This document shows positions 20,577 through 57,333 of a stretch of 64,000 bases of DNA, in pieces. Position 1 is the first letter of the stretch. Every line of letters begins with the position of its first letter. The stretch lies in the IMG/VR virus record IMGVR_UViG_3300050821_002105; one strand, given 5' to 3'. The notes beneath the pieces were generated by a model. It was not told the origin of the DNA. It saw only the letters and a list, made by a program, of their open reading frames with translations, and searched no databases. The position numbers were made by a program, and so were the translations under genes. The DNA is from an uncultured virus (IMG/VR IMGVR_UViG_3300050821_002105). Lineage: Duplodnaviria; Heunggongvirae; Uroviricota; Caudoviricetes.

Positions 20577-21648
20577 CGAAAGGAGAAGGCAACATGCAGC
20601 GAAATTGGGAAGTGTTTCACACACCAGACGGCGATAACGTTAGGGTCATCCATGAAGGCCACAAGCAGCGCCGTTTGACTAAGCGCGAGATGCGAGCGAT
20701 TGCCTCTATGGGTAGCACCACACGAAAGGGACAAGAGCAATGAGAATCAGCGAAAGGGATGCCAGGGTGGCGCTAGAGGCTACTGCGAGGCTCTGTGACA
20801 GCCTCACGGACGACCTGCGGCAGTACGGACCAGACAGTCGCCTAAGCGGCGCCCTGGTGGAAGCAAAGCAAGTGCGAGAGAGCCTCAGTAGAAAGGTAGG
20901 AGAGGGATGAGACAAGATCCAGAACAATACGTTATCGTTATCGACCATGTGCCCGGTCAGGGCTGGGAAGCTCATATCGATCATGCAGATATAGACGCGT
21001 CCGTTGGCTGGGAATCCACCGACCCTATAACGTTACTGGCCGCGGTGGCTAGGGATCTAGTCATCAATGGGGACATTCGAGACACGAACTGGGCCGCACA
21101 CTGGGGTAGCTGGTAAAAGAATTTCCAGATTAGGACTTGACAACCAGAGCGAGAAGGATTAACCTTCTCATATGGAACACAACAGAGCCGGAACAACGAT
21201 AGACAAGGGAGTCACGGTCAGAAAATGTAAGTGCGGAGCGCAGTTTCGTGGAACCTCTGAGGATTCCGCAAATAAGCGTCACGCTCATATCCTGACCATG
21301 TGGCACCTGGAGCTTATCGTTCATCCTGAAACCCTGTTTGACTTGGAAGGAGGAGGGTAGTGGCAACGTACATATACATGCTGGACGATGGGATTAACAC
21401 TACCTCTCGCGAGTGCGAGAGTGACGCAGCAGCCATGCTGGCCGGTTCTGACTGGTCCTGGCAGGGTCGCATCGTTAAGGTGTCTCGCTTCGCCCGTTGT
21501 GCGTTTACCGGTAGCGTATTCTACGCCCATGTTGGATACGCCGAGAGCAATGAGGGAGAAAATGAAAACTTGGATTAGGTACTTGACATTGCGACTGGTC
21601 GCTGATATTGTGGCCTATATCGCAATCTAACGAAAGGGACAAACAGAA

Positions 21649-42857: not shown

Positions 42858-43448
42858 TCAGATATTTGTACCAGTTAGGCTGAACGACTCCAGATAGTCG
42901 GCCATTCCCCGCAATCGTTTGGAGTCATCGCTGAAGTTGCCCGCGCCAACGTTACAGGTAACGCACAAGATTCCTCGCACGCAGTTACCGCAACTATCGT
43001 CCCCTTGACAGCAGGCATGATCGTGGTCTATGTGACAACTCCCGAGATTTTCGGGGTTAATAGCCTCATCGCAACCAGGATTGGCGCAGTGATAATCTTG
43101 CGAATCGGCCATTTCTAGACACTGCTCCCATGAGATATTATACTTACGCTTAACGTGGTTCTTGCGCGAACAAAGCTTACAGTGCGAATTTTTGTTTGCC
43201 CTAGCCTGTCCCCGTCGTGGCTTCGTATCTCCAAAGTCGTCTTTGTATTTGAACTGTTTACAGCCAGGACACCAGATATTATCTGAACCGTCATATCTTA
43301 CGGCCTTAACGAAGTACGGATCACCGTAGTTTCGTACTCGGGTGTAGTGCATTCCACACATTCCGAGAGCAAAACGGGGACTATTGCCATAGGTGCTATC
43401 GCAACCGTCTACTTTGCAGACGGTATCGGGTGTGTATCGGGTTCTCAT
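42858..43448 (-). CDS. Endonuclease VII-family HNH nuclease
   Basis: HIDHDH..C...CG.CVRGILC..CN..G. Confidence 0.85.
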   Translation of the reverse strand: MRTRYTPDTVCKVDGCDSTYGNSPRFALGMCGMHYTRVRNYGDPYFVKAVRYDGSDNIWCPGCKQFKYKDDFGDTKPRRGQARANKNSHCKLCSRKNHVKRKYNISWEQCLEMADSQDYHCANPGCDEAINPENLGSCHIDHDHACCQGDDSCGNCVRGILCVTCNVGAGNFSDDSKRLRGMADYLESFSLTGTNI

Positions 43449-44002
43449 TGCTGAACACCTTTGAACAAATATTTCGTCCAGTTGTCCTGATTGGCGTGGA
43501 CGAGAACCCTAGCTAGAGCACCCGTAGGACGCCACTGTTGCATCTCGGGCGACCACACGCGACCGTTGATTTCCCAGCCCATCTCAGCGGGAGTCCGGTT
43601 ACCCTTCTTGTGGTTACAGGCGCGACACGCAGCCACTACGTTCTCCCAGGTATTCGGACCACCTTGGGCCTTGGGAATAACGTGATCTACAGTTGTAGCC
43701 CGTCCCTGACATAGACCTGGACGCTGGTAAGCACAGATGTGCCGATCTCGCGCACAGACGTTACGAGGGGTAAGAGGAAGAGAGCGAGGACGCGTACCGT
43801 GGGCGTGTTTGGGTTTATGATAACGAGTCTGCTGGATCACAGAGGGGATCTCAACTTCCATAGAAGGAGATCTACACATCTTGCCGGTGCCCTCTAGCAT
43901 CACGGCTTTACCCTGCATTATGTCCCAGATCGCATCTTCGGCGCTACATACTTCGACTGGCTGTCCTGACACAGATAGAACTAAACATCTACCAAGGCTC
44001 AC
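43445..44002 (-). CDS. HNH endonuclease (McrA-like)
   Basis: RD...CAY...TVDHVIPK..GG..TWENVVAAC..CN..K. Confidence 0.88.
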   Translation of the reverse strand: MSLGRCLVLSVSGQPVEVCSAEDAIWDIMQGKAVMLEGTGKMCRSPSMEVEIPSVIQQTRYHKPKHAHGTRPRSLPLTPRNVCARDRHICAYQRPGLCQGRATTVDHVIPKAQGGPNTWENVVAACRACNHKKGNRTPAEMGWEINGRVWSPEMQQWRPTGALARVLVHANQDNWTKYLFKGVQQ

Positions 44003-44229: not shown

Positions 44230-44307
44230 TACAAGCGGCGGGGATCGAACCCGCAAAACCTGATATTTTGAGTATCAGAGGTATACCATATTTCCCATCA
44301 CGCTTGC
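44230..44307 (-). tRNA. tRNA-Leu(CAA), short V arm
   Basis: CTGATA-CTCAAAA-TATCAG; TTCGATC T-loop. Confidence 0.75.
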
Positions 44308-45251: not shown

Positions 45252-45599
45252 TTATTCTTCGACCCACTTACCATTGACCCTAACCTCTATTTTGAGGTTT
45301 TTGGTATCTAGTTCACGGGCTACTTCTTGTTCTATTGACTCTTCCCTTGCCGCATCTGCTTCTTTATCGTGAAGCCATGCAAGGAATCTAAATGATTTAG
45401 CCATCCTCCTTAGTGCTTCTCGGCGGTTATGAAGTTGGTCACGATGGGTTCGTGATTCTCCTACGGCACCGGACTCACGATGGATGACTCTAGCCCCAGA
45501 AGATTTTTTATTCTGCGCCTGTCCACCTTTGCCACCGGCACGAAAAAACTGCCATTCTAGGTCCGAACCTCCAATGGACATCATTTTTTCTCTTGGCAT
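45252..45599 (-). CDS. RF-1 domain peptidyl-tRNA hydrolase (ArfB-like)
   Basis: FFRAGGKGGQAQNK...R.Q..NR..A. Confidence 0.88.
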   Translation of the reverse strand: MPREKMMSIGGSDLEWQFFRAGGKGGQAQNKKSSGARVIHRESGAVGESRTHRDQLHNRREALRRMAKSFRFLAWLHDKEADAAREESIEQEVARELDTKNLKIEVRVNGKWVEE

Positions 45600-45945
45600 A
45601 ATTACGCTTTCTAAGAACTGGTACGCGTTGTTGCTACTACTATTCCGTCTTCTTCTGTGTAGGTGAAGTGAGGTGGCCTATCGTACCACATATGACCAGG
45701 AGTATTAGGTGGAACGGAAACGACCGAATGACAAAGGATATAGAACTCCACGTTCTTTAGATGGCGCTCTATACGCTCTAGCCGGTTATCGGTCATCGCT
45801 AGTTTCTCTGTATGGAAACTTTCCTATGTTGCGGAGCGAATACTGCCACACCTTCCACATTGGAATCTGATCCTTCTTCGGGCTACAGGTGGGACACGCC
45901 CCTCTGTCGCCCTGTTTTGTGTTGTCTAGCTCTTTAGCGATTGCT

Positions 45946-46251
45946 TTACTCATCGAACAGGTCTTCTAGGTCAACGTCAACCAGTTCCGCCAGACGCTTA
46001 ATCAGAGCCACCTTCTCTTCGACCTCACAGTCTTTTTGACCTGTTTCCTCATCGTAGAGCTTAGCTGCCTTCAGGAGCTTCTTCAGTGCCTCTAGTTCCG
46101 CCTTCAGCTTGTCTAGCTCTTGGCGAGTAGGAGGGTTAACATCTATGATGACGTTAGGGCTGTATGGTGGTGTGGTGTAAGGAACCACCCACGGCTCCTG
46201 AATAGGGTAGCGCCTACTCCAGTCGTCACCTACAAAACTTACTGTACACAT
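45946..46251 (-). CDS. Conserved phage protein (MCTVS..GD)
   Basis: GGAGG RBS; coiled-coil C-terminus. Confidence 0.6.
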   Translation of the reverse strand: MCTVSFVGDDWSRRYPIQEPWVVPYTTPPYSPNVIIDVNPPTRQELDKLKAELEALKKLLKAAKLYDEETGQKDCEVEEKVALIKRLAELVDVDLEDLFDE

Positions 46252-46394
46252 ACATCCTCCATAATCTTCTCCACAACGCCCTGAAGCGCTGGATCTACTT
46301 TGACCGGCTTACACTGAGCGATCAATTCCAGGAGCACCCTACGGCGCTCTGGATTCTCGTCTAGTCGTAGTCCAATCTTCATCTTGCTCCTAAA

Positions 46395-46817: not shown

Positions 46818-46818
46818 A

Positions 46819-46892
46819 TGGTACGGGAGACAGGTGTTGAGCCTGCTAAGGCTAGTTAATAAGACTGGCTGGGGTACCGACCCCGCTCCCGC
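46819..46892 (-). tRNA. tRNA-Ile(TAT), atypical
   Basis: Loop CTTATTA; short D arm; CCA. Confidence 0.65.
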
Positions 46893-47226
46893 ACGGCTAA
46901 TCTTCTTCTTGGTCCATCTCGATCTGAAGGGTTTGGTTCCATCCTTCGCAGTGTGCGGCGATTGAAGCATAGAACTCAGCCGACTCAGCTACCGTTAAAA
47001 GTAACGCATCACAGCCGACTTCATCAATAGCGTCAATCGCTCCTTCAATGAGATTGTCTAGCTTGTCCTCCGTCATGGTTCCTCCTAGTAGTAGCGGTCT
47101 AGAACGTCTATCGCCTCATGGCAAGCGTTCTCAACTCTTGCCGCAGCAGCAGCAAGATAATCTAACGCTATCCACAAAACGGTTCTTACGAGCATATCTG
47201 CATTATAACAGATGGACTCGATGATG

Positions 47227-47475
47227 TCAAGCCCCCGCAGTCTTCTTGCTGCTGGACAAAGCGCCTACAACGCGACGAGCCTCTAGAACCACTGCCGACA
47301 CAGCAGTAGACACGGCTACGATGATTGCTGTTTCTGGTCCTGCAATGTGCAGAGAGGATGCAGCATTTTCCACGACGGCCAGTACGGCACCTACGGATGC
47401 ACCTACGGATGCGATGTCGGCCGCGATGACCTTGACATCAGACTTCAGCGTATTGAGAGTAACACTCGTACTCAT
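47227..47475 (-). CDS. Small two-TM membrane protein (holin-like)
   Basis: AAGGAG RBS; hydrophobic helices, basic tail. Confidence 0.5.
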   Translation of the reverse strand: MSTSVTLNTLKSDVKVIAADIASVGASVGAVLAVVENAASSLHIAGPETAIIVAVSTAVSAVVLEARRVVGALSSSKKTAGA

Positions 47476-47656
47476 ATCGTTTCTCCTTCTGGGAGTTTGT
47501 ATTCAATCTTTGGGCTACGATAGCCGATTGGGTAATGCTTGTCTACGAAAGCGTTGAAAGCGGTCAAGTATGGTTTTACTCGAAATTGCCACTCAGCAAA
47601 ACTTTCGTCTTCTTGTGGGATTCTGCTATCTGCGATTGACATTGAATCTCCTTAGG

Positions 47657-48955: not shown

Positions 48956-49119
48956 ATGGCCGGATTGAAAGGTGCCTGAACTGTGCCGTTGGAACGAACA
49001 GGAGCTACCTGTTCTCACCCATCTTTGGACGCTGATCTTTGCACAAACGTCACGCCCTATGATCTCCGGACCTGCTTGACCATAGAGCTATTATATCACA
49101 ACCATCTCTGGTTGTCAAG

Positions 49120-49204
49120 AGGAAAGCGGGGTTCCCGCCACCCAGACGATTTCTCGCCCCACCTACTTTCCAGATAGGGCCGACACTCTGCCGGTTCACT
49201 TTCC
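49120..49204 (-). tRNA. tRNA-Ser(GGA), 8/4 fold
   Basis: Acceptor GGAAAGTG/CGCTTTCC; T stem GGGT/ACCC; long V arm. Confidence 0.75.
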
Positions 49205-49205
49205 G

Positions 49206-49292
49206 TGGAGGAAGGCAGCCCACACGATGAGCACGCCGTTAAGCGCCGTCTGTATTCAAAGCAGCGTCAGGAACCTTCCTGATTTACCTTCC
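49206..49292 (-). tRNA. tRNA-Ser(TGA), 8/4 fold
   Basis: GGAAGGTA/TGCCTTCC; T stem GCTC/GGGC; extended D stem; CCA. Confidence 0.72.
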
Positions 49293-49551
49293 CGGTTACT
49301 GTTGCGGAATCACCACCAGCTAGTTGTGCTGGTACCGGATCTCCACTGACCCTACTGGTAGCAATCAGCTTCTTCAAATTCTTTACCTCTTCAATCGTGT
49401 CGTCAAGGCGTCCATCTACATGAACCTCAACGCGAGCAATAGCGTTATCGCGCTCTCTTCCTTTTTGATCCTGCTTGTTCAATCGGTAGATGATGTATGG
49501 ACCGATCAACGCCGTGAAAACTGCGCTGATAATGATTAGGGCTATCTCCAT
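49267..49551 (-). CDS. Single-TM membrane protein
   Basis: N-terminal TM plus coiled coil. Confidence 0.55.
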   Translation of the reverse strand: MEIALIIISAVFTALIGPYIIYRLNKQDQKGRERDNAIARVEVHVDGRLDDTIEEVKNLKKLIATSRVSGDPVPAQLAGGDSATVTGKVNQEGS

Positions 49552-49581
49552 GAGATCCCCACTTCTGTTCCCCTTCGTGAG

Positions 49582-49667
49582 AGGAAAGCCCCGGTCCCGC
49601 CCCGGATCCCCCTAAGGGAACGTGTAGGTTTCGAATCTACCCTGGCCGCTTCACCAGTTGACTTTCC
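49582..49667 (-). tRNA. tRNA-Ser(CGA), 8/4 fold
   Basis: GGAAAGTC/GGCTTTCC; T stem CCGG/CCGG; long V arm. Confidence 0.75.
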
Positions 49668-50000
49668 GCAGGTTTACCAAACCCAATGTACCGGATGCCA
49701 TATGGTCCAGAATTGCAAGATGAATGCAATCACAAACAACATCATTCCGGCGTATCCGATATCATTTTCCTTGTGCCACTTGTAGCCAAAGACAGCAACA
49801 GCAGCGATGGAGACGAATAGAGCAACAACTTGCATGACGCGTCCTTTCCTACAGTTTCCCCCGCGAATGTCCGAATACGATGATGGCTAGCACGACGATG
49901 GCGGCTATCCAAACGAACGGAGTTGTAATGAAGCCAAAGATGGCGAAGAGAATCAGTAGTAGGATTAAGAAAATGAGCATGATTGCTCCTTTGTTGCAAC

Positions 50001-50089
50001 TGGAGGATAGCGGGTGACTTGAACACCACCCGCCGAAAACGGGCGCATTGCTTAGCAGGCAAGCCTTACCCCTTGTAAGTTCACTATCC
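50001..50089 (-). tRNA. tRNA-Ser(GCT), 8/4 fold
   Basis: GGATAGTG/CGCTATCC; GGTG-TTCAAGT-CACC; CCA. Confidence 0.8.
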
Positions 50090-50091
50090 AT

Positions 50092-50197
50092 AAACCCCGA
50101 GTTGTGCCACCATTACACTAAGTCCACCGCTTCTGATCGGTCCCGATCAATTGTCTAGACCGCGGTGGGCCGGAATCGAACCGGTCCTACTCGGTTT
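50092..50197 (-). ncRNA. Circularly permuted tRNA mimic 1 (YrlA-like topology)
   Basis: 5' stem, T arm, closed acceptor stem, D arm, 3' stem. Confidence 0.7.
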
Positions 50198-50917: not shown

Positions 50918-51409
50918 CTACCCGCGTATGATTTTGCCTTTATTACGACCAGCAAAAGTCGGCGTTTGAGAATGACAGTTAGGGCACAAAAATCGTAGAT
51001 TCTCAGGTTTGTTATTCCAAGAGTTTCCATCAATATGATCTATGTGCAGAACGATTGACTCACCTAGCCAATGCGATCTTATCGGACAACCCTTGGTCGC
51101 ACATTCATAGGTCCGACCTATGCTCAGTAGATCCCGAGTTAGGATATCGGAGCCTATGCGGGGCGCTCCTTCTTCTGATACCAATCGTTCGGCAGTTGAA
51201 CGCCTGGATCTGTAAGGCTGTTTTGGTTTTGCTTTAACCCAGAAATGAGAAACATCTATTTCGTATTGTGCGATTTTTTGAGTAATGCGGGTGTTGTTGA
51301 CTCCGTTAGACGGAATACCCAGCGCACGCAAAACATCAGCGTATGAATAACATGATGATACTACTCTACGGATGGCCGTTTCGCTATGATCGTATTTCCT
51401 GATAACCAT
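50918..51409 (-). CDS. HNH homing endonuclease
   Basis: LHIDHIDGNSWNN.PENLRFLCPNCHSQT.T. Confidence 0.9.
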   Translation of the reverse strand: MVIRKYDHSETAIRRVVSSCYSYADVLRALGIPSNGVNNTRITQKIAQYEIDVSHFWVKAKPKQPYRSRRSTAERLVSEEGAPRIGSDILTRDLLSIGRTYECATKGCPIRSHWLGESIVLHIDHIDGNSWNNKPENLRFLCPNCHSQTPTFAGRNKGKIIRG

Positions 51410-51498
51410 TTTCTGCTCCTGTCTCAACCCAGGAAAGGGTGGGCATTGGGTGGTTGAGCACCCGCCGCCCGTGATTTTGAGCATCTCAACATGCTGAG

Positions 51499-51864
51499 TG
51501 GAGCTAGCGGGTACTGCCCCCGCGTCTTTCGGGCCTCTACTACATTGTCACAATCATTTCCGTCTTTCCGGTTTGTCATGTTGCAGGGGTGACGTTGCCG
51601 CCACTGTTCCACCACTGACTTTTATTGTCGGAAGTCAGAAACCGGACTTTAGGGATCTTGGATTGCAAGGCGTCCCTAGCCCCGGCTGCCGCTTTTAAGC
51701 GGATACGAGAACCTTAGATCCTACCTGAGACAGATAGAAAGCGGCTTCGTCAGCGATACCGAACGTAGTGTTGTCGGTTGTTTCATGTGCGCTTATTAAC
51801 GTGACCTCGCATCACGGATTGTCAATATAGGGTCAGTCATCGAAATCGAATCTTGTTTAGCCCC
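51499..51864 (-). ncRNA. ssrA: tmRNA
   Basis: 5' GGGGCTAAACAAGATTCGA; 3' GACGCGGGGGCAGTACCCGCTAGCTCCA with G3:U70; 366 nt; tag ORF 51775-51695. Confidence 0.92.
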
Positions 51865-51933
51865 ATGAAAAACGAAGCACATGCGCCTTTGGGTAACCGC
51901 TAGCAGTAGCCTCCGGGTGTCCACTTCGTTACG

Positions 51934-52005
51934 TCGGATACCTGGGTGCTGCCCCCAGTATTTCGTGATCCCAAATCACGCGGATTGCTGTCTTCCTCGT
52001 ACCCG
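51934..52005 (-). tRNA. tRNA-Pro(TGG)
   Basis: C1-G72; CGTGA-TTTGGGA-TCACG; T-loop GGCAGCA. Confidence 0.75.
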
Positions 52006-52006
52006 G

Positions 52007-52080
52007 TGGTCCCTCATCTCGGTGCTGCCCCGAGGATTCGACTTTAAGAGAGTCGCTGTTTCCTGTTAACGTAATGAGGG
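52007..52080 (-). tRNA. tRNA-Lys(CTT)
   Basis: CGACT-CTCTTAA-AGTCG; T-loop GGCAGCA; CCA. Confidence 0.75.
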
Positions 52081-52081
52081 T

Positions 52082-52165
52082 TGGTACTCCTGACAGGATT
52101 TGAACCTGCAATCCGAGGAACTAGATTCTAAGTCTAGCGCGTTTTCCGAGTTTCGCCACAGGAGC
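52082..52165 (-). tRNA. tRNA-Leu(TAG)
   Basis: Cloverleaf, long V arm, CCA. Confidence 0.9.
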
Positions 52166-52232
52166 ATGTGGGCAGTTTACCGTCATGCCCAGGACTCCTA
52201 GCGGTATCAGCAGGGTCTTCGCAAGCCTTAGT

Positions 52233-52307
52233 TGGTGGAGGTACTGGTAGTCGAAACCAGATTTCAAGTGTGCAAGACTAGTGTAATCGCCATTATACGA
52301 TACCCCC
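52233..52307 (-). tRNA. tRNA-Ala(TGC)
   Basis: G3:U70, CCA. Confidence 0.85.
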
Positions 52308-52361
52308 ATGTTGCACAGACTCCGGACTTAGCCGTAAGGACCGTCTGTGCATCTTAGCCCA

Positions 52362-52448
52362 TTAAAAGCGCCAGCGTGTTGCCGTTACACTATCCCAGCC
52401 CACATGGGTAGGGAGCGAGATTCGAACTCGCAATACTGGCTAGATTTA
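52362..52448 (-). ncRNA. Circularly permuted tRNA mimic 2 (YrlA-like topology)
   Basis: GCCAGT, GCGAG-TTCGAAT-CTCGC, closed acceptor stem, TAGTGTAACGGCAACAC, GCTGGC. Confidence 0.72.
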
Positions 52449-52450
52449 GG

Positions 52451-52687
52451 TGGGTGGCGGGATTGGCTACCCGCAACGTAGGACTCAGAGTTGCCTATGA
52501 TTGGTTACCTACGAACTACCTAGTTCTGCTTGTCGATTTTCAACCCTTGCAAGGGGTTTTACTACCCTATCCCTCAGGCGCTAGCCCACCAGTCAAGCGT
52601 AGTTTTCCTCCGACCTAAGCGTGTATTATCCCCCAGCCTGAGCTATAAGGATTCTTCTACCACACCCTATGGGTTGCCGTCGCTACC
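52451..52687 (-). ncRNA. Unidentified structured RNA, about 237 nt, with own promoter
   Basis: Closing helix GGGTAGCG/CGCCACCC; TTGACA...TAAGGT just upstream. Confidence 0.55.
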
Positions 52688-52730
52688 CAAATCAATTACA
52701 ACCTTAACACATTTCGCTCTGGTTGTCAAG

Positions 52731-52814
52731 TCCGTCGTGTAGGGATCGAACCTACCGTGTTACTAGAACGCCAGATTTACAGTCTGGTGCCACCACCATT
52801 GGGGCCTACGACGG
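52731..52814 (-). tRNA. tRNA-Tyr(GTA) with C1-G72
   Basis: CCAGA-CTGTAAA-TCTGG; long V arm. Confidence 0.82.
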
Positions 52815-52978
52815 ATGAGTGGGTGGTTGCCTGGCCCTCTTAACGAGGCAGATGCCGCTCCCACTTATTCATGGTATTTATCTATGATTCCTGCCTCTGG
52901 GGCTGCCAGGCGGTTTTCTCTGTCAATGTGCATATAGGTCAGCCGAAGCTGAACAGAAGGTTAAAAACCCTCTCTGAG

Positions 52979-53049
52979 CGGGGAATGAGCTAATCGAAAA
53001 CTCGCTAACGGGTTTGGAAGCCGTTGTACTACCACTATACGAATTCCCC
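52979..53049 (-). tRNA. tRNA-Trp(CCA)
   Basis: Cloverleaf, G73. Confidence 0.8.
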
Positions 53050-53276
53050 AAGGAACGCTACTATAACATAGTTGCCGCTGAATGTCAAGCCCCCGGAAAG
53101 ATTTCTTTCCTTTTACAATCCGGTTGCCGACAAAACAAGTATAGCACATGCAACCCCTATTTGTCAATAGGTAGAGGCAATATTTTTATTACGATCATGT
53201 TAACGCAGCCTGAGATTCACCTTAGCATAAAACGTCCAGCTTGTCAACCCTTTTTCTACAAATCCCATAAACTTAC

Positions 53277-53336
53277 TTGACAAATCAGTATTTCCCTGCT
53301 ATACTGCCATAGAGCACATAAGTGGAACATATGTTC
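53277..53336 (+). promoter_or_regulatory. SigA promoter followed by SOS box
   Basis: TTGACA 53277, TATACT 53300, GAACATATGTTC 53325-53336. Confidence 0.7.
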
Positions 53337-54756: not shown

Positions 54757-57333
54757 TTGGCTACAGCTAAAAAGAAGCGCGCCCCCGATCATTTCAGCAA
54801 TGTCCTTACTGAGACGATCAACCCTAGCGTTATAGATGCCTTCACTCCCTTAGGATACAACCCCACACCTAAGCAGAAAATCTTTCACGATCTTTCTCAA
54901 CAGAAGGTTCACGCTATCCTTTACGGTGGCGCCCGAGCCGGTGGCAAGAGTTGCGCCATGACGATGGAGGCGATCCATTGTGCTGTAAACTTTCCCGGCA
55001 TGAAGATCCTCTGCCTCCGACGCACTTACCCAGAGCTAGAAGAGTCTTTCCTAGCTGAGCTAAAGAAGCGTCAGTACGCTGCCCCGCTGGGTGGCAAGTG
55101 GAACCAGACAGACAAGAAGCTTAGGTTTGCCAACGGCTCTGAGATAAACTTCTCCTACGCCGAGACAGAGATCGACATCTCCCGCATCCTTGGTGGTGAA
55201 TACCAACTCATCGAGATTGATGAGGCTTCTAGAACGCTCCCTATCATCATAAAGCACTCCGAAGAGAACCTGCGATCTGGAAGCCCAGCCATTCCGGTGA
55301 TGGGACTACGGCTTGCTACAAATCCCGGAGGCACCGGGCACTGTCTACCATATGGTGACGTTCTAACCCCCAATGGTTGGCGTCGAATTGAAGACATTAC
55401 TACAGGTGATCCAGTATACACCGTGCGACCTGATGGCGTGATGGTCGAAACCACCGTATCTAGGACGTTCGAATACGACTGGGATGATGACATAATTGAA
55501 GTCAACGCTCGCGGGCTTTCTATGGCGATGACTCCAAATCATAGAGTGGCGAAGGTTGGCGGCACAAAGACCAATCAAAAGACAAAATTCTCGTTGGTCC
55601 CTTTTGAAGAACTCCCCGGTCAGGCTACCATCTTGCGTTCTGTAGAGTGGCAAGGCAAGCCGTTGCCATCGTTCACTCCAGATCCAATAGAGACAAGAAA
55701 GCGCAAGTTGGAACAACCAGCAACGCTTTCTGGTGATCTATTTGCAGAACTCTTGGGCTGGTACCTATCAGAAGGTTCGGTAGTACGCTCTGGTCCAAAG
55801 GCTTTCGACATAGCTCAATCGAAACCAGACGGCAGAGACGCGATACAGAAGCTTCTAGATAGGTGTGGGCTTCAAGGGACTTGGGGTGAAAAGTCAGTAA
55901 GGATTTACGCTGCTGATTGGTGGTGGTATTTCTCGCAGTTTGGTTATTCCTATGAGAAATTTATTCCTGACTGGGTAAAGGCTGGGAGTCGAGAAGATCT
56001 TCAGATTCTCCTGAACGCGCTCATGGCTGGTGATGGGCACTGGCAGTCTAGAACTGGTGGTGCATACTATACGATCTCTAGACAATTAGCCGACGATGTT
56101 GCAGAGATAGCCGTCAAACTCGGCTATCTAGTGTTAGTAACTGAGTTTCAGAGGCCAGATAGAGTTGGTCCTAGTTTTACTGTAAACATTAAGAAGGTAT
56201 TGTCTGGGGGGAGTGAACTCCTTACTGGGAATCATCTTTACGACGTAAAGACAATGACCCAGCGTTCTTCTAACATTAGAAGAAACCATTATACTGGTAA
56301 GGTCTACTGTCTTGGCATAGATGATACCGAGACGTTTATCGTTAGACAAAACGGATCAGTCTGGGTAAGCGGCAACAGTTATCTCAAAGAACGTTTCATC
56401 AAGCCAACAGAGCGCGGTCAGCATCTCGCTATCGACGCCGTTGGACGCCGAGTGGCGTTTATCCCTGCGCTCTACACAGACAACCCGTACATCAATCAAG
56501 AACAGTACAAGCAACAGCTTGACGCGATTGATGATCCTGCTCGTCGTGCTGCTATGCGTGACGGCGACTGGGACGCCCAGGTTGGTCAGTTCTTCGAACA
56601 GTGGAGTCATTTCAAGCACGTTATCGACAGACATTGGGATCTCCCGATGGAGTGGCAACGTTACTGTGGTATTGACTACGGTGTTCACGCTCCATATGCC
56701 GCCGTCTGGGCGGCTGTAGATAACGATGGCAGAATGTGGGTTTACCGTGAGCAGTATGCTCGCGGTGTAGATGCGCGTTCACAAGCCATGAATATTCTCG
56801 AAGCCGAAGAAGCTGCTGGCGAGTACGAAGTGATACGAGTTGCCGACCCTTCCATGTGGGGCAATCGTGGCACGCCAATGAGTATTGCTGATGTGTATGG
56901 CTTAGAGGGTTGTGGCATCATGCAAGCTGACAACAACCGTCCTAACGGTTGGGCGCGGTGCCACCACTTCTTAAATGATGGACCAGCTTGCGAATATCAC
57001 ACCGAGATGGGCTGGGAAGAGTGCCCAATGATGCACGTCTTCGGTGATGAGTGTCCTAGCTTTGTGGAAACAGTTCCAGAGCTACCGCGCCATCCGCTCA
57101 ACCCAGACGACGCCGAGACTAAGAACGTAGAGGACCACATCCCAGACGCCTGGCGTTACCTCTGCATGACCGCTGGAACCAGCGGTGGACCTGTTATTTA
57201 CGACAATGACGCAAGGGAGGCTACGTCAGCGGACGTGCGCCAACTCCACGAAGAAGAAGGCGCAGCCTACATGCCAGAAAGCGCTAGGCAAATAGGCCCC
57301 TTCGTGGTTGGCGACTTGCGAATGAACCTCTGA
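54757..57333 (+). CDS. terL: Terminase large subunit (intein-containing)
   Basis: YGGARAGGKS, IDEA, ATNPGG, DNPY, GIDYG, ADPSMW, EDH.PDAWRY. Confidence 0.95.
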   Translation: MATAKKKRAPDHFSNVLTETINPSVIDAFTPLGYNPTPKQKIFHDLSQQKVHAILYGGARAGGKSCAMTMEAIHCAVNFPGMKILCLRRTYPELEESFLAELKKRQYAAPLGGKWNQTDKKLRFANGSEINFSYAETEIDISRILGGEYQLIEIDEASRTLPIIIKHSEENLRSGSPAIPVMGLRLATNPGGTGHCLPYGDVLTPNGWRRIEDITTGDPVYTVRPDGVMVETTVSRTFEYDWDDDIIEVNARGLSMAMTPNHRVAKVGGTKTNQKTKFSLVPFEELPGQATILRSVEWQGKPLPSFTPDPIETRKRKLEQPATLSGDLFAELLGWYLSEGSVVRSGPKAFDIAQSKPDGRDAIQKLLDRCGLQGTWGEKSVRIYAADWWWYFSQFGYSYEKFIPDWVKAGSREDLQILLNALMAGDGHWQSRTGGAYYTISRQLADDVAEIAVKLGYLVLVTEFQRPDRVGPSFTVNIKKVLSGGSELLTGNHLYDVKTMTQRSSNIRRNHYTGKVYCLGIDDTETFIVRQNGSVWVSGNSYLKERFIKPTERGQHLAIDAVGRRVAFIPALYTDNPYINQEQYKQQLDAIDDPARRAAMRDGDWDAQVGQFFEQWSHFKHVIDRHWDLPMEWQRYCGIDYGVHAPYAAVWAAVDNDGRMWVYREQYARGVDARSQAMNILEAEEAAGEYEVIRVADPSMWGNRGTPMSIADVYGLEGCGIMQADNNRPNGWARCHHFLNDGPACEYHTEMGWEECPMMHVFGDECPSFVETVPELPRHPLNPDDAETKNVEDHIPDAWRYLCMTAGTSGGPVIYDNDAREATSADVRQLHEEEGAAYMPESARQIGPFVVGDLRMNL
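55342..56376 (+). mobile_element. Intein with LAGLIDADG endonuclease (345 aa)
   Basis: H|CLPYGDVLT...MTPNH...LLGWYLSEGS...ALMAGDG...VYCL...VSGN|S. Confidence 0.92.

Follow-up and report, generated by a model that had tools for sequence, protein, structure and literature searches.

A divergent, enlarged manA-like RNA in the tRNA array of an uncultured phage from soil samples

The tRNA array of an uncultured tailed phage encodes a structured non-coding RNA that, judged by its sequence, is a divergent and enlarged relative of the manA family (Rfam RF01745) rather than the first member of a new family. We place at roughly 75% the probability of the reading that we favor, in which this relative is carried by a phage of soil samples, is transcribed both from a promoter of its own and by read-through from upstream, and exists as a discrete, free RNA of ~240 nt. 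manA is an orphan RNA family; the accessible portions of the literature present it in 2010 as a candidate riboswitch and, in a 2026 preprint, as a builder of RNA-only cages. Its members were described as almost exclusively marine or cyanophage in the available text of the founding survey (Weinberg et al. 2010, PMC2864571), whereas the RNA described here comes from sequencing runs labelled as soil. The accessible portions of the literature yielded no account of a soil or non-cyanophage manA variant.

The stretch of DNA analyzed, referred to here as the window, comprises 64,000 nucleotides of IMG/VR record IMGVR_UViG_3300050821_002105. Genes for a large terminase, portal, head protease, major head protein and DnaB-like helicase mark it as phage DNA, and it also encodes a UvsX-like recombinase, a RecE-like exonuclease and HNH endonucleases. 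Isolated phages offer no close counterpart to the head and packaging genes, and the head module is not T4-like; the most similar capsid from an isolate is that of Leptospira phage LE3/LE4, at 26% identity. ARAGORN places 25 tRNA genes on the minus strand between 44019 and 53049, and Rfam adds a 26th at 44230-44307. Within this array tRNA-Trp and tRNA-Tyr lie upstream of the RNA on the same strand, and the unit downstream of it includes a tRNA-Leu gene in addition to tRNA-Ala, the tmRNA and an HNH gene. The RNA and its neighbors, in the direction of transcription, are:

52730-52814, minus strand: tRNA-Tyr(GTA), the upstream neighbor of the RNA, 40 nt from it (ARAGORN).
52701-52729, minus strand: promoter-like site directly after the tRNA-Tyr 3' end, with TTGACA (52729-52724), a 17-nt spacer, TG (52709-52708) and TAAGGT (52706-52701).
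52447-52689, minus strand: the manA-like RNA as a whole, ~241-243 nt (Rfam RF01745 and our own model R1).
52405-52431, minus strand: tRNA 3'-half remnant read from the sequence, 15 nt after the RNA, GCGAG / UUCGAAU / CUCGC followed by UCCCUAC-C-CA.
52312-52399, minus strand: 88-nt tRNA-shaped element with a UUA "anticodon", of low confidence, drawn by ARAGORN at the relaxed -ps90 setting only.
52233-52307, minus strand: tRNA-Ala(TGC), the next intact downstream gene, 139 nt from the RNA (ARAGORN).
51496-51864, minus strand: tmRNA of the array, 48.2 bits, with the gathering cut-off at 47 (Rfam).

An earlier reading made from the sequence only had placed a discrete non-coding RNA at 52451-52687 and had been unable to assign it to any known class. 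The discrete non-coding element stands, on the minus strand, with boundaries that the covariance models move to 52447 on one side and to 52687 or 52689 on the other. The absence of a convincing open reading frame is likewise borne out, as the longest frames overlapping the RNA encode 70, 54 and 28 amino acids and have no Pfam match at E<=0.1. The conclusion that the RNA was novel and unassignable does not survive a cmscan search against Rfam, in which RF01745 aligns over its full model, positions 1-192, to 52447-52687 on the minus strand with 41.8 bits (E = 2.6e-9 in a 751-nt search and 3.9e-8 in the 11-kb array). This falls short of the gathering threshold, 55.2 bits, which is an operational cut-off; at gathering thresholds Rfam reports tRNAs and the tmRNA alone in the array and no manA, and the manA match is seen with E-value reporting. 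Because the full model aligns, the RNA in substance falls to a known Rfam family, which is the outcome that the sequence-only reading had itself named as counting against a novel RNA.

A second model agrees with this assignment. Canonical manA RNAs were gathered from IMG/VR by motif patterns (Rfam scores 55-188 bits), and 27 of them were aligned and the Rfam consensus structure projected onto the alignment to give a covariance model, R1. Model R1 scores the RNA at 40.6 bits (E = 7.4e-10 in 214 kb) and sets its boundaries at 52447-52689; with filters off, the E-value is 3.8e-11, and the RNA is the sole match in the 11-kb array, the runner-up reaching 5.4 bits. In 955 kb from 80 loci of phages with related terminases, R1 returned no match at E<=0.1. 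The 3' end of the RNA provides a further link to the family, as the exact motif GGGTA-N3-9-AATCCCNCCNCCCACC occurs in six IMG/VR stretches, one of which is the phage studied here, and the other five all match manA, four of them at full length with 114-137 bits and the fifth as a contig-truncated partial match of 42.4 bits, below the cut-off.

These results bear on the view that the RNA represents a novel family whose resemblance to manA is a sub-threshold chance match. The score beneath the gathering cut-off, the approximately one third of the molecule that is unaligned and the lack of close homologues in our searches would all be expected of such a family. We nevertheless regard it as highly improbable, and as already largely refuted, given E-values of 1e-8 to 1e-11 from two models, the lack of false matches in the 955 kb of control phage DNA, a rare 3' motif that is otherwise confined to manA-matching stretches, and a genomic context of the same kind as that of the manA family.

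Searches for close relatives returned only identical copies of the RNA itself. A blastn search of 52300-52830 in distant mode against 50,697 phage records gave no match, and the nearest record (G001) carries the region unchanged, with no divergence. Querying with the single terminase sequence recovered the same contig only. An alignment-based terminase query yielded the 80 loci mentioned above; the five closest terminase-related records contain no manA match at E<=1, and the closest terminase relatives that carry tRNAs (L157 and L159) end at contig edges. A pattern specific to this variant, GGGTNTGNNNGAA-N165-195-AATCCNNCNNCCCAC, was found at two loci in viral contigs, the phage itself and a chance match in coding DNA (L238), and at 33 loci in metagenome contigs. 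Among these 33, nhmmer and blastn identified two copies that are 100% identical (L239 and L260), one canonical manA RNA (L266) and one weak variant (L246), and the remainder look like chance matches. Thus no diverged close homologue was found in these searches, the only other copies being 100% identical, which leaves the pairings within the variant-specific third of the molecule provisional.

The family structure itself is well determined. Over 48 distinct manA sequences, 87.7% of the cells are paired, compared with 63.0% in shuffles, and both-sided changes occur in 47 of the 55 family pairs; none of 500 shuffles reaches the observed values, and controls in which the structure was slid along the alignment are 40-48% paired. 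When the RNA is placed in the model-fitted family alignment, 35 of the 55 pairs are formed, four are non-pairs and 16 are gapped. Its elements, from the 5' to the 3' end, are:

52670-52689, minus strand: P1 hairpin, UGGGUAGC / GACG loop / GCAACCCA, with 7 of 8 model pairs and one A-A.
52663-52667, minus strand: 5' strand GGGUG of the closing helix (the "pseudoknot" of Rfam), forming 5 of 5 pairs with CACCC at 52452-52456.
52623-52660, minus strand: P3 hairpin, with 2 of 2 outer pairs, followed by the conserved UAA.
52518-52620, minus strand: P4, GCUUAG (52620-52615) with CUAGGU (52523-52518), 6 of 6 pairs in the model alignment.
52477-52513, minus strand: P8, outer stem CGUAGG/CCUACG, with 6 of 6 outer pairs.
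52452-52474, minus strand: P9 hairpin, GCGGG / UAGCCAAU / CCCGC, with 5 of 5 pairs, CACCC following directly.
52447-52451, minus strand: single-stranded 3' tail ACCUA, aligned to the unpaired tail aCcuu of the family.

The elements that the RNA shares with manA lie in the core of the fold. The P1 loop, GACG, is of the GAYG type and equals the family consensus GAcg. The long-range GGGNN/NNCCC pairing that precedes the unpaired ACC tail is present as GGGUG/CACCC; this helix covaries within the family, where GGGAG/CUCCC, GGGUA/UACCC, GGGAA/UUCCC and GGGUG/CACCC all occur, and the GGGUG/CACCC type is also found in the canonical members L292, L277, L295 and L266. The outer pairs of P3 are G-C and U-A, which are compensatory with respect to the consensus A-U and C-G, and the MFE fold and the Rfam alignment add an inner stem, AUCCU/GGGAU, and an extra stem, UAGC/GCUG. 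Around P3, the junction block GUGaCUGAAUAA and UAAgGug of the family is recognizable here as GUGGUAGAAGAA and UAAUACAC, with several consensus letters changed. In P9, the arrangement GG-UA...AAU-CC before the 3' strand of the closing helix is kept, with a loop 3 nt shorter than that of the family, in which the motif GGUA..AAUCC..CCCAC is invariant.

The periphery is different. Within P4 lies a lineage-specific interior of 91 nt, in which only the motif UGGUGG and a UUGC-looped hairpin, CCCU/AGGG, can be identified; the model places the hairpin on P6. The arrangement found in the family, in which P4 encloses the three hairpins P5 (GUGGUG loop), P6 (GNRA loop) and P7 (ACCA loop), is not seen in the RNA: P5 and P7 are gapped or replaced, with a 54-nt insert where P5 belongs. 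In P8 the outer stem pairs and the inner family hairpin is unalignable (gapped); its place is filled by a 22-nt non-consensus segment that forms a different, GCAA-capped hairpin. In the model alignment the RNA keeps P1, the closing helix, P3 with the GAA..AA block and UAA, P4, outer P8, P9 and the 3' ACC tail, and has P5, P7 and inner P8 exchanged for ~50 nt of additional lineage-specific sequence, its ~241 nt comparing with ~176-218 nt in other manA members. Compared with manA as described in the available text of its first report (RF01745; PMC2864571), it shares the P1 GACG loop, GGGNN/NNCCC, the GUG...GAA.AA block, the UAA after P3, P4, outer P8, GGUA...AAUCC of P9, the ACC tail, the phage origin and the location in a tRNA array, and it differs in its sub-threshold score, greater length, own putative promoter and replaced P5, P7 and inner P8 loops (GUGGUG, ACCA and L8).

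P1, the closing helix, P8 and P9 all reappear in the minimum free energy (MFE) fold, which favors CUUAGG/CCUGAG over the register of P4 in the model. At -74.9, its energy is close to the average of -74.5 for shuffled sequences (z = -0.09), and the fold is not unusually stable. Several stems had been proposed from the sequence only, and they fared unequally. CGTAGG/CCTACG corresponds to the outer P8 of the family, with all six pairs formed, and CCCTT/AAGGG is the stem that R1 assigns to P6. GAACTA/TAGTTC is present in the MFE fold and competes there with the 3' strand of P4 in the model. CTCAGGC/GCCTGAG appears in neither the model nor the MFE fold. The proposed terminal helix, GGGTAGCG/CGCCACCC, is incompatible with three covarying helices of the family: GGUAGC forms part of P1 and CCCGC part of P9, and CACCC is the partner of GGGUG at 52667-52663.

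The replaced periphery is where manA RNAs are reported to make contact with one another. The preprint, in its accessible portion, describes manA RNAs that form octamers, decamers and a 60-mer cage, held together by the kissing loops L5-L7', L8-L9' and L3-L8' and an L6 GNRA-receptor contact, and reports that variants have a common core fold and variable peripheral helices (bioRxiv 10.64898/2026.07.01.735769). The phage RNA has the same core as these cage and decamer RNAs, but their L5-L7', L8-L9', L3-L8' and L6 interfaces, as given in that portion of the preprint, could not be located in it, and the known carriers of the kissing loops, P5 with its GUGGUG loop, P7 with its ACCA loop and inner P8, are unalignable. 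Complementarity between L9 and the P8 interior extends over 3 nt in the RNA, compared with 4-5 nt in most other members and a maximum of 8 nt. Across the family, L9 and the P8 interior of the same molecule average 4.98 nt of complementarity and mismatched pairs 4.21 nt, a weak signal, and the values for L5 against L7 are 3.43 vs 3.30; neither comparison is counted as evidence here. With a complement of just 3 nt for L9 and loops that are unrecognizable, self-assembly through the known interfaces is unsupported for this copy.

The 3' end of the RNA has a second affinity. The segment made up of P9, closing strand and tail yields a pattern, GGGT-N2-10-AATCCCNCCACCCACC, that has at least 120 matches in bacterial genomes, and among the 120 matches listed, 94 are the 3' ends of tRNA-His(GTG) genes called by ARAGORN. 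The last ~26 nt of the RNA resemble a tRNA T-arm, acceptor strand and discriminator, such that GCGGG-UAGCCAAU-CCCGC-CACCCAC-C differs from bacterial tRNA-His 3' ends essentially in its loop alone (8 vs 7 nt). The family-invariant GGU...AAUCC...CCCAC has the same layout as a tRNA 3' end. The likeness ends there: tRNA-His, unlike the RNA, has a cloverleaf and an anticodon arm, and the RNA has just five acceptor-like pairs. Neither default ARAGORN nor Rfam at E<=10 finds a tRNA (RF00005) cloverleaf on 52447-52689. A tRNA with a group-I-type or other long intron was considered and rejected, its only basis being an ARAGORN artefact at the 80% threshold that assumes a 185-nt intron. The 13 loci that match the pattern in viral contigs and its non-tRNA matches in genomes include nothing manA-like by R1, the best scoring 12 bits. 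We infer that the 3' end may be a mimic of, or a descendant from, a tRNA 3' domain, a possibility that would fit release by tRNA-processing enzymes.

The same likeness invites the interpretation that the element is functionless, degenerate or chimeric debris of tRNA genes, matching manA through a shared tRNA-like 3' end only. Besides the tRNA-His-like terminus and the 94 of 120 listed matches, this interpretation can call on the tRNA 3'-half remnant and tRNA-shaped pseudo-gene that come directly after the RNA, on the "tRNA" with a 185-nt intron that ARAGORN draws across it when introns are allowed, and on a weak similarity of 13 bits that the accessible part of the CMCompare study (PMC3692125) reports between the models for manA and tRNA. 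It is very unlikely, in our estimation, since the whole manA model is aligned, including P1, GGGUG..GAA..AA, P3 with UAA, P4 and P8, and not the 3' end only; since the default tRNA searches are negative; since the 3' end of the phage's own tRNA-His is different; and since the sequence is identical in independent assemblies and present in RNA libraries. As for the adjacent fragments, neither ARAGORN nor Rfam calls a tRNA at the 52405-52431 remnant, and the element at 52312-52399, which has two acceptor mismatches and a non-canonical T-loop and ends 4 nt before tRNA-Ala, has no Rfam tRNA match.

Proximity to tRNA genes is a general property of manA RNAs and is already in print: the CMCompare paper, in its accessible part, quotes Rfam to the effect that manA "occurs often adjacent to tRNAs" (PMC3692125). 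In the loci that we retrieved, which were chosen by RNA sequence pattern and not by tRNA content, a tRNA on the same strand lies no more than 5 nt away, on one side or both, in 26 of 54 R1 matches (six of the 54 being exact duplicates). The GGGTATG subtype accounts for 21 matches, each of them directly beside a tRNA, for the most part a tRNA-Arg(TCT) whose end coincides with the start of P1, and a tRNA often begins 0-1 nt past the tail. The phage RNA shares the phage or marine context, often beside tRNA genes, that goes with the family, lying as it does in a phage array of 25 tRNAs; unlike the flush subgroup, it is near its tRNA neighbors (40 nt and 139 nt) and not flush with them. A second sub-threshold variant, L246 (33.8 bits), has the same type of closing helix and the same tail as the RNA.

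The promoter proposed by the sequence-only reading, TTGACA/TAAGGT, is present with a 17-nt spacer and is one of 24 copies of TTGACA-N16-18-TANNNT in the window, compared with 1.39 expected; none of 100 shuffles reaches 24. Most copies have TG before the -10 element and their strand follows the local orientation of the genes, making this a plausible phage promoter. A generic promoter scan did not call the 52729-52701 site, which can be ascribed to a -10 element that matches at just three of six positions. Two better copies, at 53167 and 53088, precede tRNA-Trp. Given these stronger promoters and the tRNA-Trp and tRNA-Tyr genes upstream, the RNA, once described as standing at the head of a tRNA operon, heads a sub-unit with its own putative promoter and not the whole array.

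Ten public runs contain part of 51400-53200, seven of which are recorded as RNA, all labelled soil metagenome. Four RNA runs (X2, X3, X5 and X6) were examined as assembled contigs, which carry no strand, level or true ends and may include DNA. In X5 a 239-nt contig covers 52444-52682, its ends lying 3-5 nt from the model boundaries; in X3 a contig covers 52288-52679; in X2 a 1609-nt contig, 51167-52775, joins the RNA to tRNAs and the tmRNA; and X6 has no contig over the RNA. The contigs of X2 and X3 extend past the RNA 3' end. The tmRNA is covered by contigs in X3, X5 and X6; gaps in the contig cover of these three runs are given no weight as signs of absence. Contigs from two runs end at 52679 and 52682, 5-8 nt inside the predicted 5' end, which is a weak hint of an RNA end there. 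The proposal that the RNA is expressed together with tRNAs thus finds backing in these libraries, with one contig of the element alone and two that include downstream tRNAs or the tmRNA. This suggests that the element can exist as a discrete species and favors a free RNA, set loose along with the tRNAs, over a 5'-UTR switch.

A cis-acting role is the alternative with a published precedent, as Weinberg et al. (2010; PMC2864571), in the text available, class manA as a probable cis-regulator and 5'-UTR riboswitch candidate. Applied here, the RNA would be a riboswitch or leader that senses a metabolite and controls the downstream tRNA-Ala / tRNA-Leu / tmRNA / HNH unit, and it is indeed the first element behind the promoter-like site and is joined to downstream sequence in the X2 and X3 RNA contigs; L246, moreover, lies 44 nt upstream of a same-strand open reading frame of 106 amino acids with no tRNA nearby. 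We consider this role unlikely. The first open reading frame downstream is the HNH gene at 51484, reached after ~960 nt that are free of open reading frames, and past the element the minus strand shows no terminator-like site. The 26 of 54 family matches that are flush with same-strand tRNAs, some on both sides, leave no room for an expression platform. One RNA contig consists of the element alone, and the manA family has no known ligand.

The reading that we favor, a divergent manA relative acting as a free RNA, can be cast as a sequence of steps. Transcription would start at the sigma-70-like phage promoter at 52729-52701 and would be supplemented by read-through from the promoters of tRNA-Trp and tRNA-Tyr. 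Host tRNA-processing nucleases would then free a discrete RNA of ~240 nt from the tRNA-type sequences downstream; the same nucleases are the likely route of release for those canonical manA RNAs that directly adjoin tRNA genes on both sides. The product would be a free structured RNA, probably self-associating in the manner of the decamer and 60-mer-cage members, and not a 5'-UTR riboswitch. Small stable RNAs matured along with tRNAs are known from the tRNA cluster of phage T4, whose species 1 and 2 (rnaC/rnaD) are structured non-tRNA RNAs. They resemble the RNA studied here in being non-tRNA RNAs of a phage tRNA cluster; their sizes differ from it.

A diverged copy such as this one distinguishes the conserved features of an orphan family (its core, a tRNA-like 3' end and a location in tRNA arrays) from those that are free to vary, the peripheral helices that carry the known oligomer contacts. 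As a natural variant it could also be used in RNase P assays and in tests of assembly in vitro. A broader proposal, which we put forward tentatively and think rather unlikely, is that manA-type RNAs are widespread RNAs of phage tRNA arrays, neither riboswitches nor confined to cyanophages, in which a core is joined to a tRNA-like 3' handle, host maturation releases or stabilizes the RNA, and the freed RNA self-assembles or acts as a decoy for tRNA-directed host factors. If that proposal were true, the soil copy would show that the indispensable parts of such an RNA are the core and the tRNA-His-like 3' end, every peripheral helix having been exchanged.

Downstream of the manA-like RNA, the tRNA array holds two tRNA-like elements and a tmRNA, and nuclease genes flank or interrupt it:

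52405-52431, minus strand: tRNA 3'-half remnant (T-arm, acceptor 3' strand and CCA-like end)
52312-52399, minus strand: 88-nt tRNA-shaped element, reported by ARAGORN at -ps90 only
51496-51864, minus strand: phage-encoded tmRNA (Rfam score 48.2 bits, cut-off 47)
42858-44002 and 50918-51484, minus strand: three HNH or endonuclease-VII-type nuclease genes, flanking or interrupting the array

The remnant starts 15 nt downstream of the manA-like RNA and retains a canonical T-arm, GCGAG-UUCGAAU-CUCGC, without a 5' half. Its 3' strand, CCCUACCC, could also pair with the 5' GGGUAG of the manA-like RNA. The tRNA-shaped element, which ends 4 nt before tRNA-Ala begins, carries UUA in the anticodon loop (which would read UAA), a long variable arm, two acceptor mismatches and a non-canonical T-loop, and the Rfam tRNA model found no match on it. 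This element is probably not a suppressor but a pseudo-tRNA or decoy. ARAGORN made no call for the tmRNA, which lies within the tRNA array and is covered at 51498-51885 by assembled contigs from three soil-labelled libraries that are on record as RNA but may contain DNA. The array also includes several ORF-poor gaps of 0.5-1.2 kb (for example 45252-46394, 46818-47656 and 48956-50197).

Additional manA-like RNAs were found on other contigs. Two of these, the loci L129 (from contig G008:C1; RNAs at 1501-1694 and 1920-2058) and L266 (1498-1715 and 2646-2784, the latter incomplete at the end of the fetched locus), bear a second, shorter copy of about 139 nt, a few hundred nt away from the full-length RNA on the same contig and scoring 54 and 32 bits, respectively, with R1, a covariance model built from 27 canonical manA RNAs. 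A third locus, L246, holds a second sub-threshold variant:

L246 933-1156, plus strand: manA variant (R1 33.8 bits, E 7e-8)

This 224-nt RNA (GC 56%) has the GGGUG/CACCC helix and the CCACCCACCUA end in common with the manA-like RNA of the window. No tRNA was found at this locus; a 106-aa ORF starts 44 nt downstream of the variant, and a terminase-like gene adjoins. Among the bacterial-genome matches listed for a pattern taken from the 3' motif of the window RNA (L296-L415), tRNA-His genes from MAGs of Acidobacteriota (Terriglobia), Bryobacteraceae and Dehalococcoidia were strongly enriched, which may simply reflect these bacteria's own tRNA-His sequence.

The large terminase gene of the window also appears to be interrupted:

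54757-57333, plus strand: large terminase (TerL), 858 aa

Because this protein contains a LAGLIDADG homing-endonuclease domain (PF14528), and its closest relatives (about 485-517 aa, 55-72% identity) align to the TerL flanks alone, it looks like a TerL with an inserted intein.

Finally, TTGACA-N16-18-(TG)-TANNNT occurs 24 times in the window against 1.39 expected, on strands that match gene orientation. Example copies are:

53138-53167, minus strand
53060-53088, minus strand
53277-53305, plus strand
49090-49118, minus strand

Three copies, at 21137, 49090 and 52701, share the longer TTGACAACCAGAG. The overrepresentation and orientation of the 24 sites suggest a putative promoter motif used phage-wide.
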